DNA of 64,000 nucleotides from an uncultured delta proteobacterium (GTDB taxonomy: Bacteria > Desulfobacterota > RBG-13-43-22): assembly GCA_963790475.1 (NCBI GenBank), contig CAWBOS010000006.1:64001-128000 (forward strand), given 5' to 3'. Below the pieces are notes generated by a model. It saw nothing but the letters and a program-made list of their open reading frames with translations, ran no database searches and was not told where the DNA came from. This document shows positions 5,946 to 25,885 of this stretch, piece by piece (position 1 is the first letter of the stretch; each line of letters opens with the position of its first letter). Position numbers and translations under genes: made by a program.

Positions 5946-5949
5946 GTTT

Positions 5950-8355
<2,406 letters not shown>

Positions 8356-8433
8356 CTAGACCGTGAATAATATTAATTTCCCTTAATACGGTCTGACTAA
8401 TGTTTTTTAGTTTTTATTTATTAAGTTATTCAA

Positions 8434-8553: not shown

Positions 8554-8562
8554 AAAAGGGGA

Positions 8563-9702
8563 TTAAGGATTGTCCCCGGACTCATCCGTAAGCTTCATAG
8601 GCATGATCAGAGCCAGAAACCCCGGTTCTTTCTCTCCGCTTAATAAAGCGGGAGTAACCGATTCATTGAATTCCAGAATAACATTTTCGCTTTCCATAAC
8701 CTGAAGGGCGTCAATAAAAAACCGGGCATTGAATCCTACGACTAAATTACTCCCCTTATACTCCAGAGGTATACTTTCTTTGGCTTCACCAATCTCCGGA
8801 TTAACCGACAGGATTTCCAAATTACCTTTAGTCAGGGAAAATTTGACCCCTTTATATTTATCCGACGAGAGAACGCCCATCCTTTTCATGGTATCCATCA
8901 GATTATTTTTTGGAATAGTGACCACCTTTTCCTTTTTCTTCGGCAAGACCAAGGTATAATCAGGAAAATTGCTTTCTAATAATCTCATGATCATTAAGGT
9001 TTCCTCTTTTTTAAAAACGCCAAAGGACTCCTTAAATCCAATTTGTATCGGACCTGGTTTTTCCAAAATTTTTAATATTTCGGTTACGGCCTTTCGAGGT
9101 AACAGAACGCCTTTAGGAAAAACTCCCTCCCCTAACGGTTGAATTTCTTTATCCATAAGGGTTAACCGGCGACCATCGGTGGAAACCATTCGAAGAATAT
9201 TCTTTCCTTCTTTATCGATATATTCGAAGTAGATCCCCGATAAGTTATACCGTCCTTCATCCATTGATACAGATATAATGGTTTTTTGGATCATGTCCCC
9301 CAGCAAGGAACCGTCCAGAGTTATCATCTGTTTTAAATCGATATCCGGCAAGGGAGGGAAATCTATGGCTGGAAGACCGGAAATCGTAAACTGGGATCCT
9401 TGACAGGAGATAAAAAGCTTATTATTTTCCTTTAGTTTTATAAATATCTCTTCGTCCGGAAACTCCCGGATAATTTCAAAAAATTTTCGAGCTAAAATCG
9501 ATATACCACCGGCATTAATGATGGTTGCCGGACATTTTAACCGTATTCCCACTTGTAGATCAGTGGCTATAAGTTGAATGCCATCCCCATCGGTTTCGAT
9601 AAGGACATTGGAGAGAATGGGCATGGAACTTCTTTTTTCTATTATTCCCTGAACCATTTGTAGACCGTCGAAGAGGGATTGTTTTTGGATCGTCAATTCC
9701 AT
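8563..9702 (-). CDS. dnaN: DNA polymerase III beta sliding clamp
   Basis: 379 aa; MPILSNV, ATDL, STDGRRL, FPDY, GFNARF, LIMPM; upstream of gyrB. Confidence 0.97.
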   Translation of the reverse strand: MELTIQKQSLFDGLQMVQGIIEKRSSMPILSNVLIETDGDGIQLIATDLQVGIRLKCPATIINAGGISILARKFFEIIREFPDEEIFIKLKENNKLFISCQGSQFTISGLPAIDFPPLPDIDLKQMITLDGSLLGDMIQKTIISVSMDEGRYNLSGIYFEYIDKEGKNILRMVSTDGRRLTLMDKEIQPLGEGVFPKGVLLPRKAVTEILKILEKPGPIQIGFKESFGVFKKEETLMIMRLLESNFPDYTLVLPKKKEKVVTIPKNNLMDTMKRMGVLSSDKYKGVKFSLTKGNLEILSVNPEIGEAKESIPLEYKGSNLVVGFNARFFIDALQVMESENVILEFNESVTPALLSGEKEPGFLALIMPMKLTDESGDNP

Positions 9703-10131: not shown

Positions 10132-12099
10132 ATGGAAGACAAAAAAGTCATTTTTAATCCGGATAAAATAGAAATAACCGTGCCCCAGGGAGAAAATTTA
10201 TTAAGGGCGGCTATGAAAGCCGGGGTTCATATCAATGCTTCCTGTGCCGGTGAAGGGGTCTGCGGAAAATGCCGGGTGATTATAGACCGAGGGGATGTGG
10301 AAAGTGTAAGGACGGAAAAAATTACTCCGGAAGATTTTGCCTTGGGTGTTCGACAGGCATGTAAAACAAAAATTATCAGTGACTTAGAAATCACAATCCC
10401 CATGGAATCCCAGTTGGACCGTAAAGTGTTGGGCAGAGAAAGGCCCAGATCGGGAACCTGGCAGGTGATTTCAGAAATCAAGATCGAAGACTTGATTGTC
10501 GATGGTAAATTTCAACCCCCTTTTGAAAAAAAATACCTGGAAATTTCGCCACCTACCATATCTGACAATATAAGTGATCTTTCCCGGGTTATTCGTTCCC
10601 TAAAACAAACCCATGGCATTCATAACTTAATGGTTGATTTTTATACGATTCGAAAATTAGCTACCGTCCTTAGGGAAGGCAATTGGAAGGTAACAGTAAC
10701 GATTGGAAATCCTAGAAAAAAAAGTCGAAGAACTGAACTAGTAAATATTGAACCCGGGGATACTACCCATCAAAACTATGCCGTGGCCATCGATATTGGG
10801 ACAACTACTGTCTGGGGGCAATTATTGGATTTGAATACTGGCGATATCCTGGCCCAACAGGTCGAGTATAATGCCCAGATCAGTTACGGGGAAGATGTTA
10901 TCTCCCGTATTGTCTATGCCCAGAAACCGGAAGGTCGTCAAAAAATGAAAGACCTGGTGGTTTCTACTATTAATACCATTATCAAGGAATTACTTAAAAA
11001 ACACAAGGTGTCCCCGGATGGGATAACCCATATCACCTTGGCGGGCAACACCACCATGACCCATTTGTTTCTGGGTATAGAACCCCGATACATCCGGGAA
11101 ACCCCTTATACCCCTCCTATGAATTATATCCCGCCCATTCGGGCTAAAGAGGTGGGGATTAACCTGGGGGATCATGTTCAGGCCTATTTGTTTCCCTCCA
11201 TTGCCAGCTATGTGGGGGGGGATATCATTGCCGGGGTCATGGGATCGGGGATGTCCAGGCAGGAAAAATTGACCCTGTATATTGATCTGGGCACCAATGG
11301 CGAGATTGTTATCGGAAATTCGGAATGGATGACCTGTGCCGCCTGTTCTGCCGGCCCGGCCTTTGAAGGCGGGGGGATTAAACACGGGATGAGGGCCACG
11401 GAAGGGGCCATTGAAGATTTTAATGTCAATCCCAGCACCTTTGAACCCATGCTTCTGACTATTGGAATGAAAAAACCCAAAGGGATTTGTGGTTCGGGAC
11501 TAATCAATATCGTAGCCGGGTTGCTCGAATCCTGTGTTCTGGATCAAAACGGAAAATTCAAACATGGACTGAAAACAGACCGAATAAGAGAAGGAAGCGA
11601 TGGCCTGGAATACGTTCTGGCCTGGGCCCAGGATACCCAGATCAGCCGAGATCTGGTCATTACCGAGGTGGATATTGACAATCTGATCCGGGCCAAAGGG
11701 GCCATGTACGCCGGCTATATCACATTGTTAAGTGAAGTAGGTTTGACTATGAATGACTTGGAAGAGGTTATTATCGCAGGAGGATTTGGAAATTATATCA
11801 ACATTGAAAAATCGATTACTGTCGGGCTGCTGCCTGATCTGCCTTTAAATAAATTCAAGTTCATCGGCAACGGGTCCTTGTTGGGTGCCCGCCTGATTTG
11901 TCTCTCCAATATTCTTCGAACCGAGGTAAAAAGGATATTTAATAAAATTACGAATATAGAGTTAAGTGAAAACCATAATTTTATGAATCATTACATAGCC
12001 TCCCTTTTTCTTCCTCATACCGATCAAAAACTCTTTCCCCGGGTTTTTGAAAGGATAAATTGTATGGAAAAAAAAGTGAGTGAGGCAGAGAGGAATTGA
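10132..12099 (+). CDS. ASKHA-family reductive activator of corrinoid proteins (RACo/AcsV, DUF4445) with N-terminal 2Fe-2S domain
   Basis: C-x5-C-x2-C...C ferredoxin; DIGTTTV, YGEDVISRI, DLGTNGE, AGPAFEG, AGGFG motifs. Confidence 0.92.
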   Translation: MEDKKVIFNPDKIEITVPQGENLLRAAMKAGVHINASCAGEGVCGKCRVIIDRGDVESVRTEKITPEDFALGVRQACKTKIISDLEITIPMESQLDRKVLGRERPRSGTWQVISEIKIEDLIVDGKFQPPFEKKYLEISPPTISDNISDLSRVIRSLKQTHGIHNLMVDFYTIRKLATVLREGNWKVTVTIGNPRKKSRRTELVNIEPGDTTHQNYAVAIDIGTTTVWGQLLDLNTGDILAQQVEYNAQISYGEDVISRIVYAQKPEGRQKMKDLVVSTINTIIKELLKKHKVSPDGITHITLAGNTTMTHLFLGIEPRYIRETPYTPPMNYIPPIRAKEVGINLGDHVQAYLFPSIASYVGGDIIAGVMGSGMSRQEKLTLYIDLGTNGEIVIGNSEWMTCAACSAGPAFEGGGIKHGMRATEGAIEDFNVNPSTFEPMLLTIGMKKPKGICGSGLINIVAGLLESCVLDQNGKFKHGLKTDRIREGSDGLEYVLAWAQDTQISRDLVITEVDIDNLIRAKGAMYAGYITLLSEVGLTMNDLEEVIIAGGFGNYINIEKSITVGLLPDLPLNKFKFIGNGSLLGARLICLSNILRTEVKRIFNKITNIELSENHNFMNHYIASLFLPHTDQKLFPRVFERINCMEKKVSEAERN

Positions 12100-12102
12100 A
12101 AG

Positions 12103-12855
12103 ATGAGTTACACAATTGCTTTAGCGGGAAAAGGGGGGACCGGGAAAACGACCATGGCGGGTCTTTTGATTCGCTACATGGTGGGAAAGGGTCTCAAACC
12201 GGTGTTGGCCGTCGATGCTGATGCCAATGCCAACCTGAATGAGGTCCTGGGTGTCGAGGCCCGCCAAACTATCGGAGATGCCCGGGAAGAAATGAAAAAA
12301 GGCGGCTTGCCGGGTATGACCAAAGATATTTTCATGGAAATGAGGATTCAGGAATCTTTGGTGGAGTCTGAAGGGTTTGATCTGATCATTATGGGCCGGC
12401 CGGAAGGCCAAGGCTGTTATTGTGCCGCCAACAACCTCCTGACCGAATTTATAGAAAAATTATCTCAAAATTATCCCTATATGGTGGTGGATAACGAGGC
12501 CGGCATGGAACATATCAGCCGGCTGACCACCCGGGAGATTGATGTCTTATTGATCGTTTCCGACAGCTCCCGCCGGGGCCTCCAGGCTGCTGTTCGAATT
12601 GGAGAATTGACCCGGGAATTGGGGTTGAAGATAGAAAAAAGATTAGTCATCATTAACCGGGCCGAAAAAGAAGATCTTTCTGAAATCAAGGATTGGGAAA
12701 CCTTACTGAATGACCAGGGTTTAACCCTTTTAGGGATTGTCCCCAAGGATGAACTGATTTATGAATTCGACAAAGAAGGGAAGCCCACCAGTACCCTTCC
12801 GGAAAATTCCCTGGCCCGGTCGACAGCCTTTAAGTTGTTTGATTCTTTATTTTAA
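12103..12855 (+). CDS. cooC: CooC/AcsF-family nickel-insertion ATPase
   Basis: GKGGTGKTT, DAD, GCYC, DNEAGMEH motifs. Confidence 0.88.
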   Translation: MSYTIALAGKGGTGKTTMAGLLIRYMVGKGLKPVLAVDADANANLNEVLGVEARQTIGDAREEMKKGGLPGMTKDIFMEMRIQESLVESEGFDLIIMGRPEGQGCYCAANNLLTEFIEKLSQNYPYMVVDNEAGMEHISRLTTREIDVLLIVSDSSRRGLQAAVRIGELTRELGLKIEKRLVIINRAEKEDLSEIKDWETLLNDQGLTLLGIVPKDELIYEFDKEGKPTSTLPENSLARSTAFKLFDSLF

Positions 12856-13094: not shown

Positions 13095-14297
13095 TTATCT
13101 TCTGCTAAAATCCGCCAGGGTCCCTTTATATTTTTCAAGCTTTTTCTCGTCCAGTTCGATGCCGATGCCCGGTCTCTCCGGAGGGATCAGGTCACCGTCC
13201 TTCCACTCGAAGGGTTCCTTGACGATGTCATCGAAGAAATCCCTGGATTTGTAAATGCTCTCCTGAACCAGAAAGTTGGGTATGTTGGCATCGATCTGCA
13301 GGGCGGCGGCGGTGATGACCGGCCCTCCCCAGACATGGGGGGCCATGAGCACGTAATAGGCTTCGGCCATGGAGGCGATCTTTTTGCAGGCCGTGATTCC
13401 TCCGCAGCTTCCCAGATCGGGCTGGGCCACAGCGCAGGCCCCGGCCTCGAAAAGTTTTTGAAAATCATGAATGGTGACCAATCTTTCGCCGGTGGCGATG
13501 GGGATGGTCGTACTGGCGGCCACCCGGGCCATTTCCTTAAAATTTTCCGGCGGGCAGGGCTCTTCCATCCACAAAGGGTCATATTTTTCAACCCTTTTGG
13601 CCAGGCGTCGGGAGACGGCCGGGGTGATCTGCCCGTGAGTGCCGATGCATATATCGGCCCTGTTGCCCACCGCCTGGCGGACCTTCTCCACAGCCCTTTC
13701 CGCGTGATCATACTCGGCCATGGTTATTTCCCAGGGGGCCAAGGGCATTCGTCTTAACCCGGCCTGGTGCAGGGGATCGAATTTGACCCCGGTAAATCCC
13801 GCCTCCACCATCCCGGCCGCCGTTTCGGCCAGCCCGTCGGGGTTGGTGAACCAATCCAGGGTGGCTTCCAGGAGATTGTCTTTTTTCAGGTCGAAGAGGT
13901 AGGTGTAGCTCCTGATCCGGTCTCTGAATTTACCCCCCAGCAGGTTGTACACCGGGGTGTTGTAGTATTTGCCGCAAATATCCCACAGGGCGATGTCAAA
14001 GGCGCTGATCAGTCCGACGGTCAGATAATCCGGATGTTGGGCGGTCAGGTTGGAATAAAGATAATGGTAAAGCGTTTCCCGGTTGATCGGGTCTTGGTCT
14101 TTCAGGTAAGTGTCGAAAATATTCTCCACCATTTTCTCGTAGCCATTTTCAAGCCCGTATAGGCTCCAGAGAACCGCGGTCTCCCCCCAGCCGGAAATTC
14201 CCTGGTCAGTTTCCAGCTTGAGAAAAAACCATAAAAATCCTCCCCAATTGGGGGGCTCGGTTTTTACAACATATGGCTTAACATTTGTCAGTTTCAT
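13095..14297 (-). CDS. Mandelate racemase/muconate lactonizing enzyme family (galactonate-dehydratase-like)
   Basis: GWGE, DIALWDI.GK, KFD, WMEEP, PIATGE, QPD, APH, PGIGIE motifs. Confidence 0.9.
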   Translation of the reverse strand: MKLTNVKPYVVKTEPPNWGGFLWFFLKLETDQGISGWGETAVLWSLYGLENGYEKMVENIFDTYLKDQDPINRETLYHYLYSNLTAQHPDYLTVGLISAFDIALWDICGKYYNTPVYNLLGGKFRDRIRSYTYLFDLKKDNLLEATLDWFTNPDGLAETAAGMVEAGFTGVKFDPLHQAGLRRMPLAPWEITMAEYDHAERAVEKVRQAVGNRADICIGTHGQITPAVSRRLAKRVEKYDPLWMEEPCPPENFKEMARVAASTTIPIATGERLVTIHDFQKLFEAGACAVAQPDLGSCGGITACKKIASMAEAYYVLMAPHVWGGPVITAAALQIDANIPNFLVQESIYKSRDFFDDIVKEPFEWKDGDLIPPERPGIGIELDEKKLEKYKGTLADFSRR

Positions 14298-14327
14298 GGT
14301 CGTCCTTTCTTAAGATGATGAGAAACC

Positions 14328-15302
14328 CTAAAGACATGACCAAATCGTCCTTTTAACCAGAGCCCGGGCGATCGGGACCATATAACCATTGTGGGCCAAG
14401 GGTTTGGCTCCAGCCACGGCGGACTCTGCGGCCTCCGTGGCGATTTTTTCGTTTAGCGGTTTTCCGATCATACCCCTTTCGGCGTTGACCGGCCGGTATG
14501 GTTTTACAAAGACAGCGTTCAGACAGATTCGGGCTTCTTCGACCTTTTGATCTTTCAAGGTGATCGCCACAGCGCAGTTAACGATAGGAAAATCAATGGA
14601 CTTCCTAAGGGCGAATTTGCTGAAGGCGCTTCCGGTGCCAGGGGCCGGAGTCGGAATATCGATCTCCAGGACGATCTCGTCCTTTTCCAGGATCGTGGTC
14701 CCGGTTATACTCACCCGAAAGAAGTCTTCAGCCGGGACGGTTCTCTTGGTCGTCCCGATGCGGCTGTTGAGGGCGATCAAGGCCGGGGCGGTATCACTGG
14801 GGTGCACGGCATAGCACCCTTCTTCCACGCTGCCGCCGAAGATGGAGTGATAGCGGTTGTCTCCATCAATGGCATAACAACGTCCGCCGCCTTTTCTCAG
14901 ACAGGGGAAACGATTGTCCGGAGTTCGGTAGTACCAGCACCTTATATCCTGGCAGATATTCCCGGCCAGAGTGCCCATCTCCCGTATATGGGGAGAAGCG
15001 GTCTTTCTGGCCGCCAGAGACAGGGCAGTAAATTTCTCTTTCACCACAGGATGGGTGGCTATATCCTCCAGGCGGGTCAAGGCGCCTATCGTCAACCCCT
15101 CCGGGCCTTCCCGAATAAAATCCAGTCCGGGGATAGACTTAATATTGATGACCGCTTCGGGATAGTAGGGCAGGATCCTGTCTTTCATCTTTCCCAGCAG
15201 ATCGGTTCCTCCGGCAATGAGCTGGGCCCTTCCCTGATATCTTTGAAGGATTGAAACCGCCTCGTTCGTAGACTGGGCATTGATATGAACGAATTTTTTC
15301 AC
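14328..15302 (-). CDS. Xanthine-dehydrogenase-family FAD subunit with 4Fe-4S insert (PaoB/HcrB-type)
   Basis: AGGTDL, IREMGTLAGN, RCWYYR..C..C..C.AVHPSD; GTG start at 15302 with AGGAGG. Confidence 0.92.
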   Translation of the reverse strand: MKKFVHINAQSTNEAVSILQRYQGRAQLIAGGTDLLGKMKDRILPYYPEAVINIKSIPGLDFIREGPEGLTIGALTRLEDIATHPVVKEKFTALSLAARKTASPHIREMGTLAGNICQDIRCWYYRTPDNRFPCLRKGGGRCYAIDGDNRYHSIFGGSVEEGCYAVHPSDTAPALIALNSRIGTTKRTVPAEDFFRVSITGTTILEKDEIVLEIDIPTPAPGTGSAFSKFALRKSIDFPIVNCAVAITLKDQKVEEARICLNAVFVKPYRPVNAERGMIGKPLNEKIATEAAESAVAGAKPLAHNGYMVPIARALVKRTIWSCL

Positions 15303-15312
15303 GGATTCCCTC

Positions 15313-17766
15313 CTAAACCTTTCCCAAGGCCTTGAGGATTCGGTTTGGTGTAATCGGGAAGTCATCGATCCACACCCCAAGGGCGTTATAAACCGCCGGG
15401 CCGACCAGGGCAGGCACCACAGTGCCAATATCCTCCCCGATGCCCACTACCCCATAGGGGCCGTAACCCATGCCGGTCTCCACCAGGATCGTGTCGATTG
15501 GGCCTTCGATATCCAGGATAGTGGAGATCTTATAATCCAGAAGATTCCCGTTGAGCATAACCCCGGTCACCGGGTCGTAAATGACCTCCTCGGTCAAGCC
15601 CCGGCCCACACCCATATAGGTTCCGCCGTACTGCTGTCCGTTACAGGATAAGGGGTTGATGGCCTTGCCCACGTCATTGACATTGACCACCTTGGTAACG
15701 ATGACCTCACCGGTTTCAGGATCGACCTCCACCTCCATGAAATGGGCCTGACGACAGAACTTGGTATAGATATGCTCGGGATTATAAGTTCCGTCCTGGA
15801 CATGATATCCGTAAGCGAAGAGCGGGAGAGAAAAAGCGGTTCGTACACCCAGGTTCTCATTATCGCTCATGGGACCGGCACCGGTGGAGGGCCCGACGAA
15901 TTCGGCCAAGGTGATCCTTTTTGAAGGATCTTTCTTCAGAAAGATTACACTGTCCCGCATATCCAGATCTTCGGCTTTGGTCTCAGGAAAGAAAGAAGGA
16001 AAACTGCCCCGTTGGGTTTGGGCAACGGGACCGGCAGCAGCTTCCAGGATCTGCTGTTTGAGGATACGGGCGGCATTGCGAACGGCAAAACCGTTGATGG
16101 CCATATTGGTTGAGGAATCCGGAGTCATTCGGAAGAAACCGGGATCAATCCGGGGGTTATAGAAGACATCCGTCAGTTTCATCCCCAACTCATCGGCAGC
16201 TATGCGGCAGTAAGAATTCTCGGCGTCCACCCCGTTGTCACAGCCCATAGCCAGGATGGAGGCCGCGCCGTCATTTCTCTCAATGCGGATGGCCATCTCA
16301 CTCGAACCGCCCGAATCGTCCCATTCGTGGGCGAAGGTGAAGGCCAGCCCATGCATCCGGCCATTGGCCAGACGTTTGCTACCCGGCGGGTGCCACTTTT
16401 TCTCCCAGTCTATGGCCGCCTTACCATTCTCAATACATTCCCGCAGACTGTCTCTCACCACAAATCCGCGTTCTTTTTTTTGTTGATTCAACCATTCCGG
16501 GCCATGGCCGAAGGCCCCGTCATTTTTTAAGGCCACCTCCGTCGGGTCCAGATTCAAGGCATTGGCCATATGGTCAAAGACCAAGGTCTGGGTATGGGTG
16601 TTGGCATTCTGTTCACACCGGGTGGGGACATTAGGCCCCTTGTTGGTCAACACGGTCAGCATCTTTCCGTATAAATTAGGAATTCGGGTATTTTCCAGCA
16701 GGTGTTTAAGAAAATGAAAAACCGGCCATTGCTGATTAGCCAGCACGGCCCTTCCCTCAACCGCAGTAATGGTGCCGTCTTTTTTGGCCCCTACTTTGAG
16801 AGTATAGGTGCCTTCGTCCATCTCTCCGCCGAAAAAATCCTCTCGCCGGGTAAAGGTCCATTTGATCGGCCTCCCGGTGCGCCTGGACAGCAAGGCAGCG
16901 CAATAATGGCCGGCAAAATTCCAGTTGACCTGGCTCCAACCTCCGAAGCTGGCCCCCTGGTAAAGGCAATGAACTTGGATTTTGTTCATGGGAACGCCCC
17001 CGAACCAGGAAGCAATAACCCTTTTGGCAATATGGGGCCGCTGTTGTTTGACCCAGACTTCGGCCATATCGCCGTTCCAGCGAAAGACCCCGCAGGGGCG
17101 CTCAGGCCCAATCCAGGTATGGAGGCGTCGTTCGGAACGAAATTCAACGATCTGATCGGCTTCGGCAAAGCCTTTTTCAATATCGCCCTGTTTGATGTCC
17201 GAAAACGTCTCGCCCAGCAAAAGTTCGTTATAGTGATTCCCAAATGAGAAAACCTCCGGATTGGCCAGGGGTGCCTCCGGTTTCAGGGCCTCCTCCGGAT
17301 CCAGGACAAAGGGGCGGACTTCCCATTCCAGCTCGATGAGCCGCAGGGCCTGTTCGGCAATATCCTCCGTATCGGCTGCCACGGCCGCTCCGCATTCCTG
17401 CCCCTGAAAATAAACGATACCGGGAAGCACAATTTCGGCCTGTGGCACATGTCCGCCCAAGTCGGCGGTCTCGGGCAGTTCGGGATCATCATAGCGCAGA
17501 ATGGCCCGGACGCCGGGAAAATCCCGGGCCCTGGTCGTATCCATTTTTAATATTTTAGCATGAGGATAAGGCGAGGTCAGGAATCGCAAGTGGAGCATTC
17601 CGGGCAACTGGACATCCATGGTATAGTCGGCCCGCCCACCAGCCTTGTGAAGGCCATCCACCCGACGCGGGCCTCGCTGGCCGATATGGACATACTCTTT
17701 CCGGGGGTATTTGTCGGCCCCCAGGTTGTCGAACATCTCCTTCATTCGGGAGATCTCTTCAGACAT
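15313..17766 (-). CDS. Xanthine-dehydrogenase-family molybdopterin-binding large subunit
   Basis: G.ADYT.D..LPGML, SPYPHA, GASFGG, EVEVDPETG, GIGE motifs; start MSEEISR overlaps the upstream gene. Confidence 0.93.
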   Translation of the reverse strand: MSEEISRMKEMFDNLGADKYPRKEYVHIGQRGPRRVDGLHKAGGRADYTMDVQLPGMLHLRFLTSPYPHAKILKMDTTRARDFPGVRAILRYDDPELPETADLGGHVPQAEIVLPGIVYFQGQECGAAVAADTEDIAEQALRLIELEWEVRPFVLDPEEALKPEAPLANPEVFSFGNHYNELLLGETFSDIKQGDIEKGFAEADQIVEFRSERRLHTWIGPERPCGVFRWNGDMAEVWVKQQRPHIAKRVIASWFGGVPMNKIQVHCLYQGASFGGWSQVNWNFAGHYCAALLSRRTGRPIKWTFTRREDFFGGEMDEGTYTLKVGAKKDGTITAVEGRAVLANQQWPVFHFLKHLLENTRIPNLYGKMLTVLTNKGPNVPTRCEQNANTHTQTLVFDHMANALNLDPTEVALKNDGAFGHGPEWLNQQKKERGFVVRDSLRECIENGKAAIDWEKKWHPPGSKRLANGRMHGLAFTFAHEWDDSGGSSEMAIRIERNDGAASILAMGCDNGVDAENSYCRIAADELGMKLTDVFYNPRIDPGFFRMTPDSSTNMAINGFAVRNAARILKQQILEAAAGPVAQTQRGSFPSFFPETKAEDLDMRDSVIFLKKDPSKRITLAEFVGPSTGAGPMSDNENLGVRTAFSLPLFAYGYHVQDGTYNPEHIYTKFCRQAHFMEVEVDPETGEVIVTKVVNVNDVGKAINPLSCNGQQYGGTYMGVGRGLTEEVIYDPVTGVMLNGNLLDYKISTILDIEGPIDTILVETGMGYGPYGVVGIGEDIGTVVPALVGPAVYNALGVWIDDFPITPNRILKALGKV

Positions 17767-18373
17767 CTTCTTTTCCTTCCCGCTCTTTAATAAAATCCTG
17801 AACAGCAATCGGATGCTGCGGGTAGGTGCCGCAGCGACAAAGATTGCCGGCCAATGCCTCCCGGATTTCCCGGTCAGTGGGATTTGGGTTCTTATCCAGC
17901 AGGGCCTTGGCCGTGACCACGAATCCGGGAGTACAATAACCGCATTGCATGGCATGGTGTTCGGCGTACTTTTCTATCAGCTTGGGATGGGCGGCAGCCA
18001 CACCTTCCACCGTTTCGATTACGGCACCATTGCATTCGATGGCCAGGGTCATGCAGGAGAGAATGGCCCGGCTGTTCATGATGACCGTACAGGAACCACA
18101 GGCCCCTCGATCGCAGAACATCTTGGCCCCGGTCAAGCCCAACCGGTCATGAATGACCTGGTACAGGGTCCACTCCGGTTCAACTATGATCTCGTAGGGT
18201 TGACTGTTGACAGTCAGCCGGATCAGCCCTTCCGGCTCGGGGACAGGTTCTGTCTTGTGCTCGGCCAGGACATGGATTTTCAAGGCTTCAAAGGTTTCCT
18301 GGAGCCGGGAACAATAAGGGCATTGGAAGCGGGCTCCCAGTTCCGAATTTTTCATATCCATAGTTCTCCCCAT
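17759..18373 (-). CDS. Xanthine-dehydrogenase-family 2x[2Fe-2S] subunit with N-terminal C2H2 zinc finger
   Basis: CDRGACGSCTV, QCGYCTPG, NLCRC; N-terminal C-x2-C-x12-H-x4-H. Confidence 0.93.
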   Translation of the reverse strand: MGRTMDMKNSELGARFQCPYCSRLQETFEALKIHVLAEHKTEPVPEPEGLIRLTVNSQPYEIIVEPEWTLYQVIHDRLGLTGAKMFCDRGACGSCTVIMNSRAILSCMTLAIECNGAVIETVEGVAAAHPKLIEKYAEHHAMQCGYCTPGFVVTAKALLDKNPNPTDREIREALAGNLCRCGTYPQHPIAVQDFIKEREGKEDV

Positions 18374-18378
18374 TCGGA

Positions 18379-19604
18379 TTAAATACTTTTCAGAGTCCTC
18401 AAAAATCGTGATTGTGTCAAACGTTGCTCATATTCCTCTTTAAAATACTTCAACGAATCCAGGACCGGTACGGGGACGGATTGACCCAGTCCGCACAAAG
18501 AGGCCTGCATCATAGCCGGAGAGAGGGCTTCCAGGGCCGAGAGATCTTCCGCCCGGCCTTCCCCATGGACCAACCGGTTGAAGATCTCCATCATCACCTC
18601 AGTGCCTTCGCGGCAGGGGGTACATTTCCCGCAGGATTCCTCGGCAAAAAAAAGAATATTTCGGAAAACCGTATCGATCATGTCCCGGCTCCGGTTAAGG
18701 ACGATCACCGCCCCTGAACCCAGTACCTGCTCAAAAGCCAAAGGGGTATTCAGCAGCTCGGGGGTAAGATCCTTCCTGAAGCTCCGCCGATCTGGACCGC
18801 TTTGATCTCTCGCGCGCCGGCCAGGTCCTCGACCAGTTCCTTTAAGGGGCTGCCCATGAGGAGCTCATAAACTCCCGGCCTTTCCACATCGCCACTGACG
18901 GAAAAAACCTTGGTACCTCTGCTTTTCTCCGTCCCCATGGCCCTGAACCAGCCGGCACCGTTCAGCATGATCCTTGGGATGTTCACCAGGGTCTCGACAT
19001 TGTTGATAATCGTTGGATATCCAAAGAGACCTTTCATTGGCGGGAAGGGAGGTTTATAACGGGGCTCTCCCCGTTTACCTTCGATGGAATCCATGAGGGC
19101 CGATTCCTCTCCACAGATATAGGCTCCGGCCCCTTCGACGATCCGAATATCCATATGATTCAGGAACCCGGCCTCTTTAACCTGTAGAAGGATTTGTTCC
19201 AGGCCATTCAACAAAAAATGGTATTCAGCCCGCAGATAAAGGTAGGCCCTTTTTGCTCCTATGGCATACCCGGCAATGGCCAGGCCTTCAATAAGAGAAA
19301 AAGGGTCCCCGGAAAGGATGGTTCGGTCTTTAAAAGCGCCGACTTCGCCCTCATCGGCATTACAGATCAGGTATTTTTCTTTCCCTTTTGTTTTTCGAGC
19401 CAACTCCCATTTCAAGCCACAACTGAATCCCGCCCCACCCCGGCCCAGAAGTTCTGAAGATTTGATCTCATCGATGACCGCTTCCGGGCTTAACTCCTCT
19501 TGACATCTTTTCCAGGCCTTAAACCCGTCTGCGGCAAGATAGGTTTTGAGATCTTGGGGATCAATCTTACCCACATTCTTAAGGACGATTCGCGTTTCCG
19601 GCAC
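18379..19604 (-). pseudogene. NuoF-like FMN/NAD-binding subunit split by a 1-bp frameshift (ORFs 18750-19604 and 18379-18741)
   Basis: GRGGAGF, NADEGE, GAYICGEE, NNVET in the first part; ESCGKCTPCREG, CGLG in the second; adding one C to the C5 run at 18760-18764 restores LPPELLNTPLAFE. Confidence 0.85.
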
Positions 19605-19623
19605 GGTATTCTCCCTAAATATT

Positions 19624-20043
19624 TTAGGTATATTTCTTTAGGACTTTTGATAGCTTCTCTGGAGTTAAATGCCCATGAACATCGTCGTTGATCAACATGG
19701 CCGGGGCCAGGTCGCAGGCCCCGATGCAATTGGTCAATTCAAAGCTGAACCGGCCGTCTTTGGAGACTTCACCGGGTCCGATACCCAAGACCTCCTGAAT
19801 GCCATTGATAATCATCGGCGAATCCTGCATGTGGCAGGGGAGGCTTTTGCATATACGAATAACATACCGGCCCCGCGGCTTCAGGGATAAAAAGGAATAG
19901 AAACTGGATACCCCGAATATTTCGTTATTCGGGAGGTTCAAAGAATCGGATAATTCTTCCAGGGCGGTGGGAGACAAAAAAGACTCTTTAGTTTGTGATT
20001 GTTTCAATAATTCGAGCAGGTCTTGACGATTGGGTTCAGACAT
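19624..20043 (-). CDS. NuoE-like [2Fe-2S] subunit
   Basis: SFYSF, C-x4-C (CKSLPC), CIGACDLAP. Confidence 0.92.
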   Translation of the reverse strand: MSEPNRQDLLELLKQSQTKESFLSPTALEELSDSLNLPNNEIFGVSSFYSFLSLKPRGRYVIRICKSLPCHMQDSPMIINGIQEVLGIGPGEVSKDGRFSFELTNCIGACDLAPAMLINDDVHGHLTPEKLSKVLKKYT

Positions 20044-20064
20044 ATGAAGCAGGCTCCCTCTATA

Positions 20065-20703
20065 TTAATTCGTGGGTTTGCTTAAGGCCCCGGTGGGGCA
20101 GTAGTCGATACAGATTCCACAATCTCTGCATACTTCTTTTTTTAATGGACCGTCCAGGTCGGTGATGATCTTGGACTGAAAGCCCCGATAAGCGACGCTT
20201 AAGACATTCTTTTGGGCGATCTCGTTGCAGGCCCCGACACACCGACGGCAGAGAATGCATTTGGAAAGGTCCCGTCGTACATAGGGATTATCGTCTTCAG
20301 GAGGATAATAACGGGGGGCCTCCACTTGAAAGCGGGGAGGCCCGATTTCAAGTTCAGCAGCCAGTTTATGGAGTGTACAGGCTTTGGCATTGATGTCTGC
20401 AACACAAGCCCCGGTATGAGCGGTCAGGAGGAGTTCAATAATCGTCCTTCTGGTTTCCAGGACCTTGGGCGAACGGGTATGAACAACCATGCCATTGGAA
20501 ATAGGCGTATGGCAGGCCGCTATCAGAGTACGGGACCCCGCCACTTCGATCAGGCAGACACGGCAAACACCCGTGGGTTGAAGGTCCGGCGAATGACACA
20601 GGGTCGGGATTTTAATATTAACCTGCTCGGCCGCTTGAAGGATGGTCATCCCCACCCGGCCTTTTACTGCGCTTCCGTCGATAGTAAGATGAATATCATT
20701 CAT
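20065..20703 (-). CDS. Stand-alone NuoG/HydA/FdhA-N-terminal-like iron-sulfur protein
   Basis: IPTLCH..CRVC..AAC (2Fe-2S), CILCRRCVGAC and CRDCGICIDYCP (2x4Fe-4S); no catalytic domain. Confidence 0.88.
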   Translation of the reverse strand: MNDIHLTIDGSAVKGRVGMTILQAAEQVNIKIPTLCHSPDLQPTGVCRVCLIEVAGSRTLIAACHTPISNGMVVHTRSPKVLETRRTIIELLLTAHTGACVADINAKACTLHKLAAELEIGPPRFQVEAPRYYPPEDDNPYVRRDLSKCILCRRCVGACNEIAQKNVLSVAYRGFQSKIITDLDGPLKKEVCRDCGICIDYCPTGALSKPTN

Positions 20704-20886: not shown

Positions 20887-20916
20887 AGTATAAAATAGTC
20901 AAACAATAAGAGTCAA
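20887..20916 (-). promoter_or_regulatory. Putative sigma70 promoter of the FeS-NuoEF-XDH operon
   Basis: TTGACT-18 nt-TATACT on the minus strand. Confidence 0.5.
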
Positions 20917-21128: not shown

Positions 21129-21902
21129 ATGGATAAATACCCAACTCCCCCCATGGCCGATTACCAGGATTTAAGGAAGCTCTGCCTGGAAATTGCCATT
21201 GCTGTGGGTCCCCCGATTTTCTATACCGAAAAAGAAGAATCCGTCGCACAATCCCGGATCGCTTTTGAAAAAAATGAGACGGTCCAAGAGTGTTTAGGGA
21301 TTGTGGCTCAGGAAGGATTTTTCGCCGGTCATGCCGAGGTGCATATCCGCAATGTGGCCATTGATGCCGGGGCTATCGTTCTCATTGAAGCCGATGGATC
21401 GTCAGCTATAGGGAAAATCGGCCAAAGGCTTTCTTTCCTGGCCCACATAGCCGGCGTTCTTCATGATATCAAGCGGTCACACCCCGAGCATGCCCGTCTC
21501 GGCGCCCTTGAAGCCGAAAGGATTCTGAAGCGGTTTGATCTGGAAGAGGTCGAACAGCAAATGATCGTCAAGGCCATTGCCAATCATGAGGCCTTTCAAC
21601 CGTCTGAACCTCTCGAATCGTCGAATGCCCAACTTCTTTCCGATGCCCTTTATGATGCCGATAAATTCCAGTGGGGGCCGGAAAATTTCACCGAAACCCT
21701 CTGGGCCATGCTGGCCTTACGACAGAACGAAAATGTTCCTCTCCTTTTCCAGAGGTTTCCCCAAAGCATGGAAGGCATCGAACGAATCCGCAGCACCTTC
21801 CGTTCGCGCACCGGCCAGTTCTATGGGCCCGACTTTATCGACCGGGGTCTGGAAATCGGCCATCGACTTTATGACCAGTATAAAGCTATCCAAGGAGATT
21901 GA
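21129..21902 (+). CDS. HD-domain protein
   Basis: GHAEVH, AGVLHDI, HARLGA, IANH, DADK. Confidence 0.85.
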   Translation: MDKYPTPPMADYQDLRKLCLEIAIAVGPPIFYTEKEESVAQSRIAFEKNETVQECLGIVAQEGFFAGHAEVHIRNVAIDAGAIVLIEADGSSAIGKIGQRLSFLAHIAGVLHDIKRSHPEHARLGALEAERILKRFDLEEVEQQMIVKAIANHEAFQPSEPLESSNAQLLSDALYDADKFQWGPENFTETLWAMLALRQNENVPLLFQRFPQSMEGIERIRSTFRSRTGQFYGPDFIDRGLEIGHRLYDQYKAIQGD

Positions 21903-21977: not shown

Positions 21978-23108
21978 TCAGGACAACAAAATCTGAGCCA
22001 ACTGTTGTTTGTGATAGGCCGGTTCACCCAGAAAATTATAAAGGTAACGGGAAGTCCGTGTGTGTAGGGCCAAAGGGTGCTCCATGGAATAACTGATGCC
22101 GCTTATGGCCCGATGTGCCATATTGCAGGCCTGAAAATAAGCCTCACTGGCCACGGCCTTGGCCAAATGAACACTCTTCGGGACCAAGCCCTGGACATCC
22201 AGTTTCCACAAGGCTTCATAGGTGGTCCAGCGGGCGGCGTCAACCTGATTGACGATTTCAATAATCAAATCCTGGACACGCTGAAAACGGCCTATGGTCT
22301 GTCCGAACTGAATCCTGACCCGGCTGTAATCCACGGCGATATCGAAAACAGCCTGGCAACCGCCGACTTTATAGGCACAAAGAACAGGAATGGAACTCTG
22401 GATGCCTTTGATTAAAGGGATCCAGCCGGTATCCTTTTTCCCTAATAAAGCCGAAGGAGGCAACTTGACATTGTCAAATTTCACTTCAAAGTTTCTGCCG
22501 ATTAAATATCCGGGTAATTTTCGTATCGAAACCCCCCCCGCTTTTTTATCCACTAAAAAAAGCGAAATGATATCGCTGTCATCTCCGGTGCGAAGCGGAA
22601 CAATAAAGTGTGTGGCCGACAAGGCATCTTGAACAAACAGCTTGACCCCGCTCAGAACAAAATCTCCGTTTTTTTCTTCAGGTCTGATTTTTATGGATCC
22701 GGAATTCCACCCATACTCCGCTTCGGTCATGGCCAGGGCCAATACTATTGATCCATCGGCAACCTGAGGTAAAATTTCTTTTTTTTGCTCATCCGTTCCG
22801 GCTTCCTGGACGATCAGACTCCCCAAAATTCCTGAGGAAAAATAAGGGCCGGGAAGAGGCCCGGTTCCCAGGGCCTCAAACAGGACCCCGGCGGTAGTCA
22901 GGGGATAGCCTGTCCCCCCAAACTCTTCCGGTATAACGATTCCCAGCCAACCCATATCGGCAACTTTTTTCCAAATAACCTCATTGAACCCGGTATCGGA
23001 ATCATGGAGAGCCATCAGCGTTTCCTTGGATATATCCCGTTTCATAAAATTGATGGCTGCAGTTTTAAGTATCTCTTCACTTTCGGTAAGCCTAATATCC
23101 AAATTCAT
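21978..23108 (-). CDS. Acyl-CoA dehydrogenase family (probable non-catalytic partner subunit)
   Basis: GWLGI.IPEEFGG, ALAMTE, LSGVKLFV, R.QFGQ.IGRFQ. Confidence 0.88.
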   Translation of the reverse strand: MNLDIRLTESEEILKTAAINFMKRDISKETLMALHDSDTGFNEVIWKKVADMGWLGIVIPEEFGGTGYPLTTAGVLFEALGTGPLPGPYFSSGILGSLIVQEAGTDEQKKEILPQVADGSIVLALAMTEAEYGWNSGSIKIRPEEKNGDFVLSGVKLFVQDALSATHFIVPLRTGDDSDIISLFLVDKKAGGVSIRKLPGYLIGRNFEVKFDNVKLPPSALLGKKDTGWIPLIKGIQSSIPVLCAYKVGGCQAVFDIAVDYSRVRIQFGQTIGRFQRVQDLIIEIVNQVDAARWTTYEALWKLDVQGLVPKSVHLAKAVASEAYFQACNMAHRAISGISYSMEHPLALHTRTSRYLYNFLGEPAYHKQQLAQILLS

Positions 23109-23237
23109 GGGTAATCTCCTTAGAAAAAATTGTTATGGTTAATCCCCTTCTCCTATTGATGAGGGCATCATAAATCATGAAAATTTGATTTGCCGAACTC
23201 TTGAAAGAAAAAGGGCATTTTCATGTCCATATTTTGG

Positions 23238-24494
23238 CTATCTTCCAATCCGCAGCGCCCTGGAGATAACGATTTTCAAGGCCTCCGGGGTGCCACCAGG
23301 GGCAATACATAGGCCGCTTCGTTCACAAACTTCAAAAAGGCCTTCCTCCAGAATGAGCTGATCGTCGTTGGTCAGGGCTTGGGGACCAAGAATCCTGGAT
23401 AGATAGGCGGTCATATTCAAACCCAACATTTTGGTAAACAGGGCGGTTTGGGGTCCGGCATAGGCGGCGCGTTTTCCTGCTCTGGGCAAGGCGGCGTTTC
23501 GCATATGAAAAAGCCGCTCTATCTCTCCTCCGATAAAGGTTTCAACCATGTCTCCTTGGAGCATGGGGTTTTGCAGCAGACGGTTTTTTATAACCGGATT
23601 GTTTTTACACTGGTCAAGCAATTTATCTACCATATGATTACGTGGAATAAAGGCGGCTCCGGTGCCGGCACGATCGGTATCTCTATCCCCATGTTCAACG
23701 GTTAAGGTGGCTGTGGTAACCTTCCAGCCGTCATTGTCCCCGCCGATCAAAAAGGAGTCAGGAATTTTAACGTCATCAAAAAAAACGGAATGTTTAACCC
23801 CCGGCGCGCTGTCCGCAGTTTGATAACAGACCTGACCGATAGTGCCCTCGGGAAAAAGGTCCAGTGGGAAAATTTGAACTCCCGCCAGATTAGCCGGGGC
23901 CAGAAACATAGCCAGATTCTGATGGCGGGGAGCCTCCATACTACTTCGGGTCAGGAGCAAAAATTGATCGGGTGGGGCGTAAAGGCCCCCGACAAATATT
24001 TTATTGCCGTTAACAACGAAATATTCTTTTTCCTTGACCGATCGCAGGGCGTTGGTCTGTTGGTTGGCCTCGTCCGTCCCGGCCTCCGGTTCGGTAAAAA
24101 GCTGCCAGGTGACGGCTTCTCCTTTTAGAATGGGGGGCAGTAAACGTTTCTTTTGCTCTTCTGTGGCACAGGCCATAAGGGTAGGGGCAGCGAGTTTCCC
24201 TGAGTCGTAAAGGGGTGGCAAGCTCAACCCTATTTCGGCCATTTCTTTATTCAGAACTGCCGATTTATCTCCCCCAAGGCCTCCTCCTCCGTATTCACTG
24301 GGAAATATAGGATAGAGCCACCCTTTTTGGCCAAGTTTGCGGCATAGATTGCGGCGCATTTCCCACTGTTCGCGGCTCATCTTAAAAATGCTCCGCGGTC
24401 TGACGAGGTCCTTAGGGACGTTCTCCTCCAGCCAGGCGCGAACTTCTTTGGCGAATGCTTCCTGTTCCGCATTGTATTTGTTGGAAAAGTCCAT
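23238..24494 (-). CDS. Acyl-CoA dehydrogenase family (FadE26-like subunit)
   Basis: WQLFTEPEAGTD, NGNKIF, VFFDDV, GWKV, LTVEH, GGTPE; start at MDFSNKY. Confidence 0.88.
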   Translation of the reverse strand: MDFSNKYNAEQEAFAKEVRAWLEENVPKDLVRPRSIFKMSREQWEMRRNLCRKLGQKGWLYPIFPSEYGGGGLGGDKSAVLNKEMAEIGLSLPPLYDSGKLAAPTLMACATEEQKKRLLPPILKGEAVTWQLFTEPEAGTDEANQQTNALRSVKEKEYFVVNGNKIFVGGLYAPPDQFLLLTRSSMEAPRHQNLAMFLAPANLAGVQIFPLDLFPEGTIGQVCYQTADSAPGVKHSVFFDDVKIPDSFLIGGDNDGWKVTTATLTVEHGDRDTDRAGTGAAFIPRNHMVDKLLDQCKNNPVIKNRLLQNPMLQGDMVETFIGGEIERLFHMRNAALPRAGKRAAYAGPQTALFTKMLGLNMTAYLSRILGPQALTNDDQLILEEGLFEVCERSGLCIAPGGTPEALKIVISRALRIGR

Positions 24495-24760
24495 AATGTA
24501 ATCCTTTCGTTTTTTTTGGGGTTCTGGGCTATCGGATCCCGGTGCCAAATGGAGTCCGATCATCACATAAAATAAGTTCTCTTTATTTCACAAATTTAGA
24601 TCATTTAGAATCGTTACAAAACTCTGTTAATGAAGTCAATATTTATTTATCCGCAGGAAGTCTATTTATCTTTTGGTTTGACAAGTCGATACTAACAAGA
24701 TATTTCAGAAATTGTCAAAAATATCAAGGAGAGTCAAAAAAGATTCTGGAGGGAATTAGG

Positions 24761-25885
24761 ATGGCAACCCAACTATTTGAACCGATCAAAATAAATAAAT
24801 TGAAAATCAAGAACCGCCTGATGCGCTCAGCTACCTGGGATGGGAGTGCGGACGAGTCCGGCGGGATAACGGACCAATCTATCCGCATATACCAACAACT
24901 GGGACAAGGGGACATCGGGCTCATTGTTACCGGTTACGCCTTTGTTTCTCATCCGCTGGGACAGGCCAATCCTGGGCAGTACGGAATATACAACGATCAG
25001 CTCCTGCCCGGTTGGAAACACCTGGTAAAAACAGTACATGAAAGCGGCGAGAGCAAGATTGCCATGCAGATCGTCCATGCCGGGATCAATTCCCCCTACC
25101 TGTTAAGGAAAGGCTATACCCTGCTATCGGTATCAAGAAAACCGGAATTGAGCCGCCCCCATCAGGAGATGTCTGAGAAAGAGATCAAGGGGATAATCAA
25201 AGACTTCGCCGATGCGGCGGTACGGGTCCGGGAGGCGGGCTTTGATGCCGTCCAGATCCACGGCGCACACGGCTATTTATTGAGCCAGTTCGTTTCCCCG
25301 ATTTTCAACCAAAGGACCGACCGCTGGGGGGGCAGTCCTGAGAACCGCCGTCGTTTTCATTTGGAGGTTATCCGGAGAATCCGGAAAGCGGTGGGAAATG
25401 ATTATCCGGTATTGATTAAATTCGGGGCGGAGGATAACCAGGAAGGCGGCATGCCCTTTTCCGAAGGTCTGGAGACTTGCCGTCAGATGGAAAAAGCGGG
25501 GATAGACAGTATCGAAATCAGCACCGGTGTGGGGGAAGGCTCTGGGGCGATTAGCAAAAGTGAATTGAAAAAAGGTGCGGTCGACAAGGTCCTTTTCCGG
25601 CAGAACGCGGCGGCGGTAAAAAAGGCCGTGGGCGTGCCGGTTGCGGTGGTCAACGGCATCCGCAGTCTGGAGAAGGCCCAGGAAATTATTGCCAGCAGTG
25701 ATGCCGATATGATTTCCCTGTGCCGCCCGTTTATCCGCGAGCCGCACTTGATTTCCCGCTGGCTGGCTGGAGATACCCGACCGGCGGCCTGCATCTCCTG
25801 TAACCTGTGTTTTCCGATCTTGAGACGGGGTGAGCCGCTGGAATGCGGAGAAGAAAGAAGGCAGAAGGAAAAAGGGAAGAAGTGA
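24761..25885 (+). CDS. NADH:flavin oxidoreductase (Old Yellow Enzyme family)
   Basis: NRLMRSAT, QIVHAG, GFDAVQIHGAHGYLLSQF, NQRTDRWGG, CISCNLC. Confidence 0.92.
   Translation: MATQLFEPIKINKLKIKNRLMRSATWDGSADESGGITDQSIRIYQQLGQGDIGLIVTGYAFVSHPLGQANPGQYGIYNDQLLPGWKHLVKTVHESGESKIAMQIVHAGINSPYLLRKGYTLLSVSRKPELSRPHQEMSEKEIKGIIKDFADAAVRVREAGFDAVQIHGAHGYLLSQFVSPIFNQRTDRWGGSPENRRRFHLEVIRRIRKAVGNDYPVLIKFGAEDNQEGGMPFSEGLETCRQMEKAGIDSIEISTGVGEGSGAISKSELKKGAVDKVLFRQNAAAVKKAVGVPVAVVNGIRSLEKAQEIIASSDADMISLCRPFIREPHLISRWLAGDTRPAACISCNLCFPILRRGEPLECGEERRQKEKGKK

Follow-up and report, generated by a model that had tools for sequence, protein, structure and literature searches.

Modules of the NuoEF type are known as partners of hydrogenases, formate dehydrogenases and tungsten-dependent aldehyde or benzoyl-CoA enzymes. 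In HoxEFU and HoxFU of the [NiFe] hydrogenases, FdsGBA (6TG9) and the non-bifurcating HydABC, a NuoE, a NuoF and a NuoG-N-type wire protein are set between a metal site and NAD(H). The electron partners of the bacterial three-subunit enzymes of the xanthine dehydrogenase (XDH) family are often unknown or do not include NAD. HcrABC of Thauera aromatica (1RM6/1SB3), whose FAD subunit carries an extra [4Fe-4S] loop, takes its electrons from free ferredoxin, while the Mo-Cu CO dehydrogenase CoxLMS (1N5W, 8UEM) feeds the aerobic respiratory chain, not NAD. PaoABC of E. coli (5G5G) and the Methylobacillus aldehyde oxidase (5Y6Q), in which the FAD subunit likewise binds a [4Fe-4S] cluster, are periplasmic, and the aldehyde-oxidising glyceraldehyde oxidoreductase of Sulfolobus (4ZOH) belongs to a pathway that includes an enolase-family sugar-acid dehydratase. 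Here we describe a locus on a 64,000-nt stretch of DNA from an uncultured delta proteobacterium (assembly GCA_963790475.1, contig CAWBOS010000006.1, positions 64,001 to 128,000; hereafter the window), where the genes for an XDH-family trimer stand directly behind those for a HoxU-like wire protein, NuoE and NuoF. Both modules are textbook, but their union is not. The locus represents a class of XDH-family enzymes linked to NAD(H) that is real and widespread but uncharacterised, and its six core genes probably encode one soluble, non-bifurcating, NAD(H)-linked molybdenum hydroxylase.

The locus differs from each of the described systems in a distinct manner. In contrast to HoxEFU, FdsGBA and HydABC, the NADH module is paired with an XDH-family trimer and not with a hydrogenase or a formate dehydrogenase, its Fe-S protein stands alone and lacks a catalytic domain, and the gene order is HoxU-NuoE-NuoF. 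HcrABC, although it is a top structural match, shares only about 25% identity, and has neither NuoEF/HoxU genes nor the C2H2 zinc-finger-like extension found here on the small subunit. There is no NuoEF link to NAD in PaoABC or the Methylobacillus enzyme, the Mo subunits of which are only distantly related, and the Sulfolobus enzyme has neither an NADH module nor a [4Fe-4S] insert. No paper describing an XDH-family enzyme with NuoE/NuoF/HoxU genes was found in the literature searched, which included only a minority of the subscription journals.

The gene set and its conservation

The interval 13095-20703 (-) is filled by eight open reading frames (ORFs), with NuoF counting as two. On the basis of Pfam domain calls, these encode, in order of transcription, a HoxU/NuoG-N/HydA-N-type Fe-S wire protein (20065..20703; 212 aa; Fer2_4, NADH-G_4Fe-4S_3 and Fer4_Nqo3), a NuoE-type [2Fe-2S] subunit (19624..20043; 139 aa; 2Fe-2S_thioredx, 1.4e-43) and a NuoF-type FMN/NAD(H) subunit with the N3 [4Fe-4S] site (18379..19604). 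The last is split in the assembly into an N-terminal part (18750-19604; 284 aa; Complex1_51K and SLBB) and a C-terminal part (18379-18741; 120 aa; NADH_4Fe-4S). They are followed on the same strand by the XDH-family small subunit with two [2Fe-2S] sites (17759..18373; Fer2 and Fer2_2), the molybdopterin (Mo) subunit (15313..17763; 816 aa; Ald_Xan_dh_C, MoCoBD_1 and MoCoBD_2), the FAD subunit with a four-Cys insert (14328..15302; 324 aa; FAD_binding_5 and CO_deh_flav_C) and an enolase-superfamily (MR/MLE) acid-sugar-dehydratase-like protein (13095..14297; MR_MLE_N and MR_MLE_C). The longest ORF of the FAD gene starts at 15428 and overlaps the Mo gene, with the start that matches its relatives being a GTG at 15302. 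The intergenic gaps, in transcription order, are 21, 19, 5, -5 (an overlap), 10 and 30 nt, and a scan for terminator-like sites on the minus strand identified none in any of them. A sigma-70-like promoter match (TTGACT-18-TATACT; 20887..20916, -) lies approximately 184 nt upstream of the HoxU-like gene. With eight such matches in the region, against 6.8 +/- 2.5 in shuffled sequences, there is no excess and this match serves as a position only, not as evidence; terminator counts are likewise no higher than in the shuffles. An earlier note, made from the sequence alone, had listed seven tightly packed or overlapping minus-strand genes, among them an Fe-S protein without a catalytic domain. The placement and packing of the genes are as it described, and Pfam finds in the Fe-S protein only the three N-terminal cluster domains of NuoG/HoxU/HydA, but NuoF is not a single gene in the window, a break that the note had overlooked.

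Orthologs of the Mo subunit at E <= 1e-100 occur in 7/13 other genomes of the genus, while none were found in seven other genomes of the family or in 20 other sampled genomes of the phylum. In seven of the eight same-genus regions, which derive from seven genomes, HoxU and NuoF genes lie directly upstream of the XDH genes, accompanied by NuoE in six; the eighth region stops at a contig end. One of these regions, L027 (G009:C33:8000-27999), carries the complete six-gene set twice in tandem, with Mo subunits that are 61% and 49% identical to that of the window and diaphorase genes that score nearly alike in both copies.

A wider survey, covering one genome per prokaryote species, returned 277 relatives of the Mo subunit. 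The best 80, all from metagenome-assembled genomes (MAGs), were kept, and the neighbouring genes at these loci were called by tblastn with the proteins of the window. By their labels, these MAGs belong to the Thermodesulfobacteriota, Dehalococcoidia, Anaerolineales, Acidobacteriota, Binatia and some further groups. In 46/80 loci the XDH genes have one or more diaphorase genes beside them, and all six genes are present in 27, with most of the remaining 19 diaphorase-bearing loci cut by contig ends. A further 17 of the 80 loci are too short to judge and two hold a fragment only. Two main gene orders can be distinguished, HoxU-NuoE-NuoF-small-Mo-FAD and HoxU-NuoE-NuoF-Mo-small-FAD, which correspond to separate, well-supported clades on a FastTree tree of 76 Mo subunits.

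The pairing was also approached from the side of the diaphorase, by searching NuoF in 301 genomes of the phylum (30 matches at E <= 1e-90). Seven NuoF proteins share at least 62% identity with the query (414-430 aa by open frame, except for one of 747), and each of them has HoxU as well as an XDH small or Mo subunit as neighbours. The remaining 23, at 48-55% identity and with longer open frames (536-1085 aa), show the usual order NuoE-NuoF-HydA/HoxU, and XDH genes occur within the 1.5-kb flanks of none of them (0/23). Since 7/7 of the closest but 0/23 of the next-closest NuoF proteins sit with XDH genes, the diaphorase is a dedicated clade. The source genome itself holds three other NuoF paralogs (42-48% identity), two of which are long. 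The earlier note had proposed a search of other genomes for co-occurrence of the six genes, and considered that its reading would fall if homologs of the XDH trimer never sat with NuoEFG-like genes; the opposite was found in both the forward and the reverse direction. Furthermore, when the distance matrices of 26 complete loci are compared, HoxU or NuoF correlates with the Mo, FAD or small subunit (r 0.55-0.69) about as strongly as the members of one module do with each other (r 0.65-0.77), and 0/999 permutations reached the observed value.

The genomes of "orphan" Mo genes, which stand without diaphorase neighbours, encode a family-type FAD subunit at another position in 5/5 examined cases (65-68% identity). 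In four of these regions the FAD gene is accompanied by those for HoxU, NuoE, NuoF and the small subunit, while the fifth region begins at a contig end. One of the four, in an Acidobacteriota genome, is a "headless" HoxU-NuoE-NuoF-small-FAD module without any Mo gene. Among the loci returned there are four to five per MAG in the Dehalococcoidia. The family has diversified, with some genomes keeping one electron-transfer module and several free-standing Mo subunits, and the gene arrangements suggest interchangeable catalytic heads on one electron-transfer module. Modules without a Mo gene and free-standing Mo subunits are illustrated by L122 (G044:C1:4327000-4346500), L042, L043, L057, L070 and L096. 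Elsewhere in the source genome, the Mo subunit has another twelve matches at approximately seven loci, most of them with 26-44% identity.

The break in the NuoF gene of the window is a homopolymer error of the assembly and does not indicate a dead gene. One base is missing in a C-run at approximately 18755-18760 (C5 for C6 on the coding strand), which places the two parts of NuoF in different frames. Logan contigs of four public runs (X1-X4) were aligned to window positions 17800-20700, and their sole indel was an extra G behind 18759, present in X1, X2 and X3 (three runs from three studies), while X4 has no depth at the break. The X1 contig (520 nt) is otherwise identical to the window, possibly stems from the same sample as the assembly and is for that reason not fully independent; X2 and X3 represent diverged strains. 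With the extra base restored, NuoF reads through at the length of its relatives, the junction is in frame in 8/8 same-genus relatives, and the ortholog at locus L021 is intact (409 aa; Complex1_51K, SLBB and NADH_4Fe-4S). As the contigs of three runs carry the base and all eight relatives are in frame, a NuoF pseudogene was ruled out. Other homopolymer errors may exist in the same 20-contig assembly (6.34 Mb; estimated contamination 9.68%).

Cofactor sites and relationships of the subunits

The Mo subunit matches PF01315, PF02738 and PF20256, all above their cut-offs, and so has the a/b-hammerhead and the two Moco-binding domains of an XDH-family large subunit. When scored in bits against the NCBIfam equivalog models, it approaches none of their cut-offs. 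The best sequence matches of its family profile are HcrA, Qor and CoxL (E 1e-81 to 1e-53), and an AlphaFold2 model (pLDDT 81.6; pTM 0.82) has 1t3q_B, 1rm6 and 8uem_A as its top Foldseek matches (TMq 0.74-0.78; 24-26% identity). In alignments with Hcr, Qor and CoxL, Glu777 corresponds to the Glu of their G-x-G-E/S-E-G motif and, together with Gln241, is invariant in 76/76 family members, so that both catalytic residues of the XDH family are present. We take Glu777 to be the catalytic base and Gln241 to lie near the Mo oxo group, as for other members of the XDH family. The GGGFGGK stretch of the XDH family reads YQGASFGGW. The most conspicuous feature is a loop behind the universal Arg, R382-C383-E384 (window 16612-16620), which is invariant in 76/76. 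This invariance is not built in, since the patterns with which the 80 loci were collected lie elsewhere in the Mo subunit. Sequence and predicted fold together place the Mo subunit in what appears to be its own branch of the XDH family.

The two smaller XDH-family subunits are also recognisable by Pfam domains and invariant Cys residues, with a two-[2Fe-2S] small subunit and a FAD_binding_5 medium subunit. Among PDB chains, the FAD subunit is most similar to 5y6q_B (1.8e-39), an aldehyde oxidase chain that bears a [4Fe-4S] cluster, and each of the four Cys in its insert has a Cys counterpart there. These residues (C107, C119, C127 and C148) are invariant in 36/36 aligned family members, which bears out the four-Cys 4Fe-4S insert described by the earlier note. 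In the comparison with HcrB (1rm6_B), two of the Cys align with Cys while one HcrB Cys falls on a Tyr; these HcrB residues are presumably cluster ligands. The small subunit has as its best NCBIfam match a model of the Sulfolobus-type glyceraldDH alpha/beta/gamma set (157.4 bits against a cut-off of 290), and the other two subunits likewise miss the cut-offs of this set (132.5/350 and 171/790). It further carries an N-terminal C2H2 zinc-finger-like extension, CPYC-x12-H-x4-H (residues 18-39; window 18257-18322). In an alignment of 22 sequences, from which L033 was left out as its over-long BLAST range ran past the natural stop, the extension has the consensus CP[YF]C-x12-H-x4-H, with C18, C21 and H39 invariant and H34 in at least 90%. 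The extension precedes the part covered by the models, with NCBIfam matches beginning at residue 44 or later and Pfam matches at residue 54, and could be a docking element for the NADH module.

The NADH module contains all the sites of a complex I N-module-type diaphorase, namely FMN, NADH, N3, the NuoE [2Fe-2S] site and the cluster domains of NuoG/HoxU. The FMN motif GRGGxGF and the NADH motif GxGxYxCGEE of NuoF are conserved in 41/41 family N-parts, the N3 Cys motif in 41/43 family C-parts, and the Cx4C...Cx3C motif of NuoE in 21/21 family members examined. The motifs of the HoxU-like protein indicate one [2Fe-2S] and two [4Fe-4S] clusters as well as an N5-like site, and the four Cys of the [2Fe-2S] site and both CxxCxxCxxxC motifs are invariant in 38/38. 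The same is true of the N5-like site, H96-x3-C100-x2-D103-x5-C109 (window 20377-20418), in which an Asp replaces the second Cys of the HxxxCxxCxxxxxC site of HydA1 (8a6t, 7q4v). Among solved structures, it is closest to the first ~205 residues of HydA1 (8a6t/7q4v), 7t2r_A and FdsA (6tg9), while in NCBIfam the protein scores 183.4 bits against the HoxU cut-off of 333, and 214.7 bits over the first 207 positions of the group A6 [FeFe] hydrogenase model. As the equivalog cut-offs are not reached for NuoF, NuoE or HoxU, the module is a relative rather than an ortholog of those subunits.

Neighbouring genes and substrate hints

The MR/MLE gene at the end of the cluster encodes both the N- and C-terminal MR_MLE domains expected of GalD/ManD-type enzymes, with galactonate dehydratase as its best NCBIfam match (271.5 bits, below the cut-off of 311). 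It follows the FAD gene in the window as well as at L021 and L023/L030, and was not found in L020, L022 or 79/80 of the wider loci. The dehydratase is thus a clade-specific accessory and not part of the conserved core. A more widely distributed neighbour is a gene of the glycerol-dehydrogenase subfamily (462-470 bits against a cut-off of 336), which lies directly upstream in 10/80 loci (L040, L048, L049, L051, L056, L057, L073, L096, L106 and L107) and whose products are 66-82% identical to that of L051. It precedes either the cluster or an orphan Mo gene, in MAGs labelled Desulfobacteraceae, Anaerolineales, Acidobacteriaceae and others. This spread over several phyla may point to a transferable unit that acts on a polyol or hydroxy-aldehyde. 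A KduD-like SDR was also observed among the neighbours at other loci. The aldehyde or hydroxy-acid substrate which the dehydratase had suggested to the earlier note gains some support from the glycerol-dehydrogenase-family neighbours, but conservation of the dehydratase is limited to the nearest relatives.

Several other gene types recur beside the related loci. These include an SDR with a radical-SAM protein and a small protein (4 loci), a thymidylate-synthase-like gene (4 loci), XdhC (7/80 loci) and a MobA-like NTP transferase with an HD domain (4/80 loci), both of them maturation genes, while CoA ligase, enoyl-CoA hydratase, alcohol dehydrogenase, aldehyde dehydrogenase and aldo-keto reductase genes are found occasionally. 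Four Acidobacteriota orphan loci (L070, L077, L086 and L093) carry a TrsS-like radical-SAM protein together with a small dicluster protein and an AMP-dependent ligase of the DVU_1553 family. The names of these families go back to a locus of Desulfovibrio vulgaris situated near the aldehyde oxidoreductase gene of that organism. The source genome holds one XdhC gene, which, like the maturation genes at related loci, would be no more than an indirect hint of a bound Mo-pterin (MCD) cofactor with a sulfido ligand.

In the window, a divergent gene (21129-21902, +) encodes a 257-aa protein without a Pfam match, which weakly matches (2e-06) the HD-domain part of a DVU_1551-family NTP transferase; a transferase of this type is a maturation-type neighbour of related molybdoenzymes at other loci. 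Two acyl-CoA dehydrogenase (ACAD) genes, followed by a gene for an OYE-family flavoenzyme, lie near the cluster. No counterparts of the two ACADs at >= 40% identity were found in the eight same-genus regions, and they were not counted among the genes of the system. The surroundings further include a RACo-type corrinoid activator with a CbiA-family ATPase. As gyrA, gyrB and dnaN lie close to the cluster, the region is near the replication origin. These three genes, the activator and ATPase, and the ACAD and OYE-family genes are found within window positions 3326-9702, 10132-12855 and 21978-25885.

Proposed reaction and alternative readings

The catalytic head of the proposed hydroxylase would be the XDH-family trimer, with its Mo-pterin, two [2Fe-2S] clusters and an FAD subunit bearing an extra [4Fe-4S] cluster, and the dedicated complex I-type module of HoxU-like wire, NuoE and NuoF would link this trimer to NAD. 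We infer that the two modules are in physical contact, as well as the order of the cofactors, the direction of the reaction and the substrate. In a path of which each step is read from cofactor motifs, the substrate would be hydroxylated with water at the Mo site, with Glu777 as base and Gln241 near the oxo group, and the electrons would reach the FAD by way of the small subunit and its two [2Fe-2S] clusters. From there they would move to the [4Fe-4S] cluster of the FAD subunit, which would act as exit port, and then along the HoxU-like protein's clusters into NuoF, with its N3 cluster and FMN, where NAD+ would be reduced by the FMN. The oxidation of aldehydes with NAD+ is thermodynamically easy, and the polyol-dehydrogenase and sugar-acid-type neighbours favour an aldehyde-type substrate and the oxidative direction. 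Provided that the complex is real, we tentatively propose that it works in this direction on an aldehyde-type substrate, which in the clade of the present locus may be an aldose or hydroxy-aldehyde whose acid product could be taken up by the adjacent dehydratase.

Several observations weigh against this proposal. One same-genus cluster (L023/L030/L128; G001:C22) lacks NuoE, with HoxU followed directly by NuoF, and 15/61 assessable loci (>= 4 kb upstream) have no diaphorase gene beside the Mo gene, so that adjacency is not obligatory. Shared descent alone can yield distance correlations of the kind found among the complete loci, and the standard mechanism of the hydroxylases assigns no role to the invariant Cys383 beside the universal Arg. 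In sequence, the nearest enzyme to have been characterised is the reductase Hcr, which runs in the opposite direction. Finally, an acyl-CoA substrate would fit the CoA-ligase, ACAD and enoyl-CoA hydratase genes that neighbour some loci, including the two ACAD genes near the cluster of the window.

In a first alternative reading, the same complex would run in reverse, as an NADH-driven reductive dehydroxylase of hydroxylated aryl-CoA esters or similar compounds in obligate anaerobes. It would then be a counterpart of the ferredoxin-dependent 4-hydroxybenzoyl-CoA reductase, with electrons entering via the [4Fe-4S] cluster of the FAD subunit. Hcr is the best NCBIfam and PDB sequence match of the Mo subunit and the second for the FAD subunit, after 5y6q_B. 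The extra [4Fe-4S] on the FAD subunit is common to Hcr, the OYE-type reductase lies near the window's cluster along with the ACADs, and many paralogs occur in MAGs of the Dehalococcoidia, a group for which Hcr-like genes have been noted (PMC4959651). However, the three subunits fall far below the Hcr cut-offs (294.6/994.55, 146/404.55 and 144.3/257.8), the low identity to HcrA stated above applies, and the Cys pattern of the insert follows 5Y6Q/PaoB and not Hcr, one Cys of HcrB falling on a Tyr. NADH (-320 mV) is also a weak donor for a Birch-type reduction if there is no bifurcation, and the ACADs of the window are not shared by the eight same-genus regions. On balance, a reductive role appears unlikely.

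A bifurcating or confurcating enzyme would require ferredoxin as third partner, with the branch at the FAD/[4Fe-4S] of the XDH medium subunit or at the FMN of NuoF. The complex does have two flavins (FMN and FAD) and many clusters, and the HoxU-like protein is closest to the N-terminus of the bifurcating HydA1. PMC9304861 describes Wor-Bfu and BamB-I Bfu complexes, in which anaerobes likewise combine a NuoEF-type module with a pterin enzyme for aldehydes or aryl-CoA, and the modules found with aldehyde-oxidising W enzymes do bifurcate. According to this source, the partners of Bfu modules include hydrogenase, formate dehydrogenase, tungsten aldehyde oxidoreductase, benzoyl-CoA reductase and others, while the words molybd- and xanthine are absent from its main text. 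The pterin enzymes concerned are W enzymes of the AOR family rather than XDH-family Mo enzymes, and the bifurcating BfuB is a long protein defined by four extra clusters (B2-B5) and conserved F182, A202 and M204 (PMC9304861). Of these marks, B2-B5 and M204 were checked and are absent from NuoF, the 409-aa ortholog of which has only the FMN, SLBB and N3 domains. At the position of the BfuB Met, the GAFKD of the window has a Lys, which is retained as G[AT]FKD in 41/41 family N-parts, in line with the AFKD motif and the absence of bifurcation put forward in the earlier note. There is also no ferredoxin gene conserved in the cluster, and the 23 NuoF homologs of the phylum that are long and Bfu-like fall into an identity class of their own, in which the gene order differs. 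As NuoF has only these three domains and a Lys in place of the Met of BfuB, we conclude that the locus most plausibly encodes a simple, non-bifurcating NAD(H)-linked enzyme, and consider bifurcation very unlikely.

The invariant Cys383 allows for a third reading, in which the enzyme is a new kind of small-molecule oxidoreductase whose active site is related to that of Mo-Cu CO dehydrogenase. It would hold a second metal or persulfide at the Mo sulfido, with CO, H2 or another C1 compound being oxidised by NAD+. Whether aligned as a single sequence or as a profile, the Mo subunit has Cys383 at the position of the Cys in the CoxL loop (A)Y(R/A)CSFR (8uem_A, 1n5w_B), which we take to be the copper ligand of the Mo-Cu enzyme, while Hcr and Qor have a Gly at this position. 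The R-C-E loop is invariant throughout the family and CO dehydrogenase chains are among the top structural matches of the Mo model. Nevertheless, only Arg-Cys of the CoxL signature VAYRCSFR is kept, the S-F-R being absent from a family that reads [PA][TV]RCE[QML], and on CO_dehy_Mo_lg, which has a cut-off of 991.15, the score is 163.9. The presence of several diverged paralogs in one genome and the sugar- and alcohol-type neighbours point to organic substrates instead, and no CoxD/E/F-type genes occur among the neighbours scanned, to which the search was confined, with no genome-wide search made. A CO dehydrogenase-like function is accordingly regarded as highly improbable. Two unrelated neighbouring enzymes or a decaying operon, as the frameshifted NuoF in the window as given and the 15 loci with Mo genes but no diaphorase neighbours might suggest, can be dismissed as extremely improbable, given that the missing base is present in the contigs of three runs, one of them otherwise identical to the window, that the arrangement is kept across phyla with 7/7 against 0/23 in the reverse test, and that even in the "headless" module the diaphorase is still found with the small and FAD subunits of the XDH type.

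A dedicated NADH module for an XDH-family enzyme would explain the disposal or supply of electrons by molybdenum hydroxylases in strict anaerobes, and would give the enigmatic extra [4Fe-4S] cluster of PaoB/HcrB-type FAD subunits a concrete and testable role, as the docking port for a protein wire. The Arg-Cys-Glu loop marks at least 277 uncharacterised loci, the chemistry of which may differ from that of the textbook hydroxylases. A bolder extension, which we hold to be distinctly unlikely, is that these loci constitute a new molybdenum-hydroxylase branch with an active-site chemistry of its own. The invariant Cys-Glu pair, at the place where Mo-Cu CO dehydrogenase has its copper, might then carry a second metal or a Cys persulfide on the Mo sulfido, and one NAD-linked "socket", made up of HoxU-NuoE-NuoF and the small and FAD subunits, would serve several exchangeable Mo "heads" per genome. 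If true, such a plug-in branch would give anaerobes a water-dependent, NAD+-coupled oxidation of many substrates.

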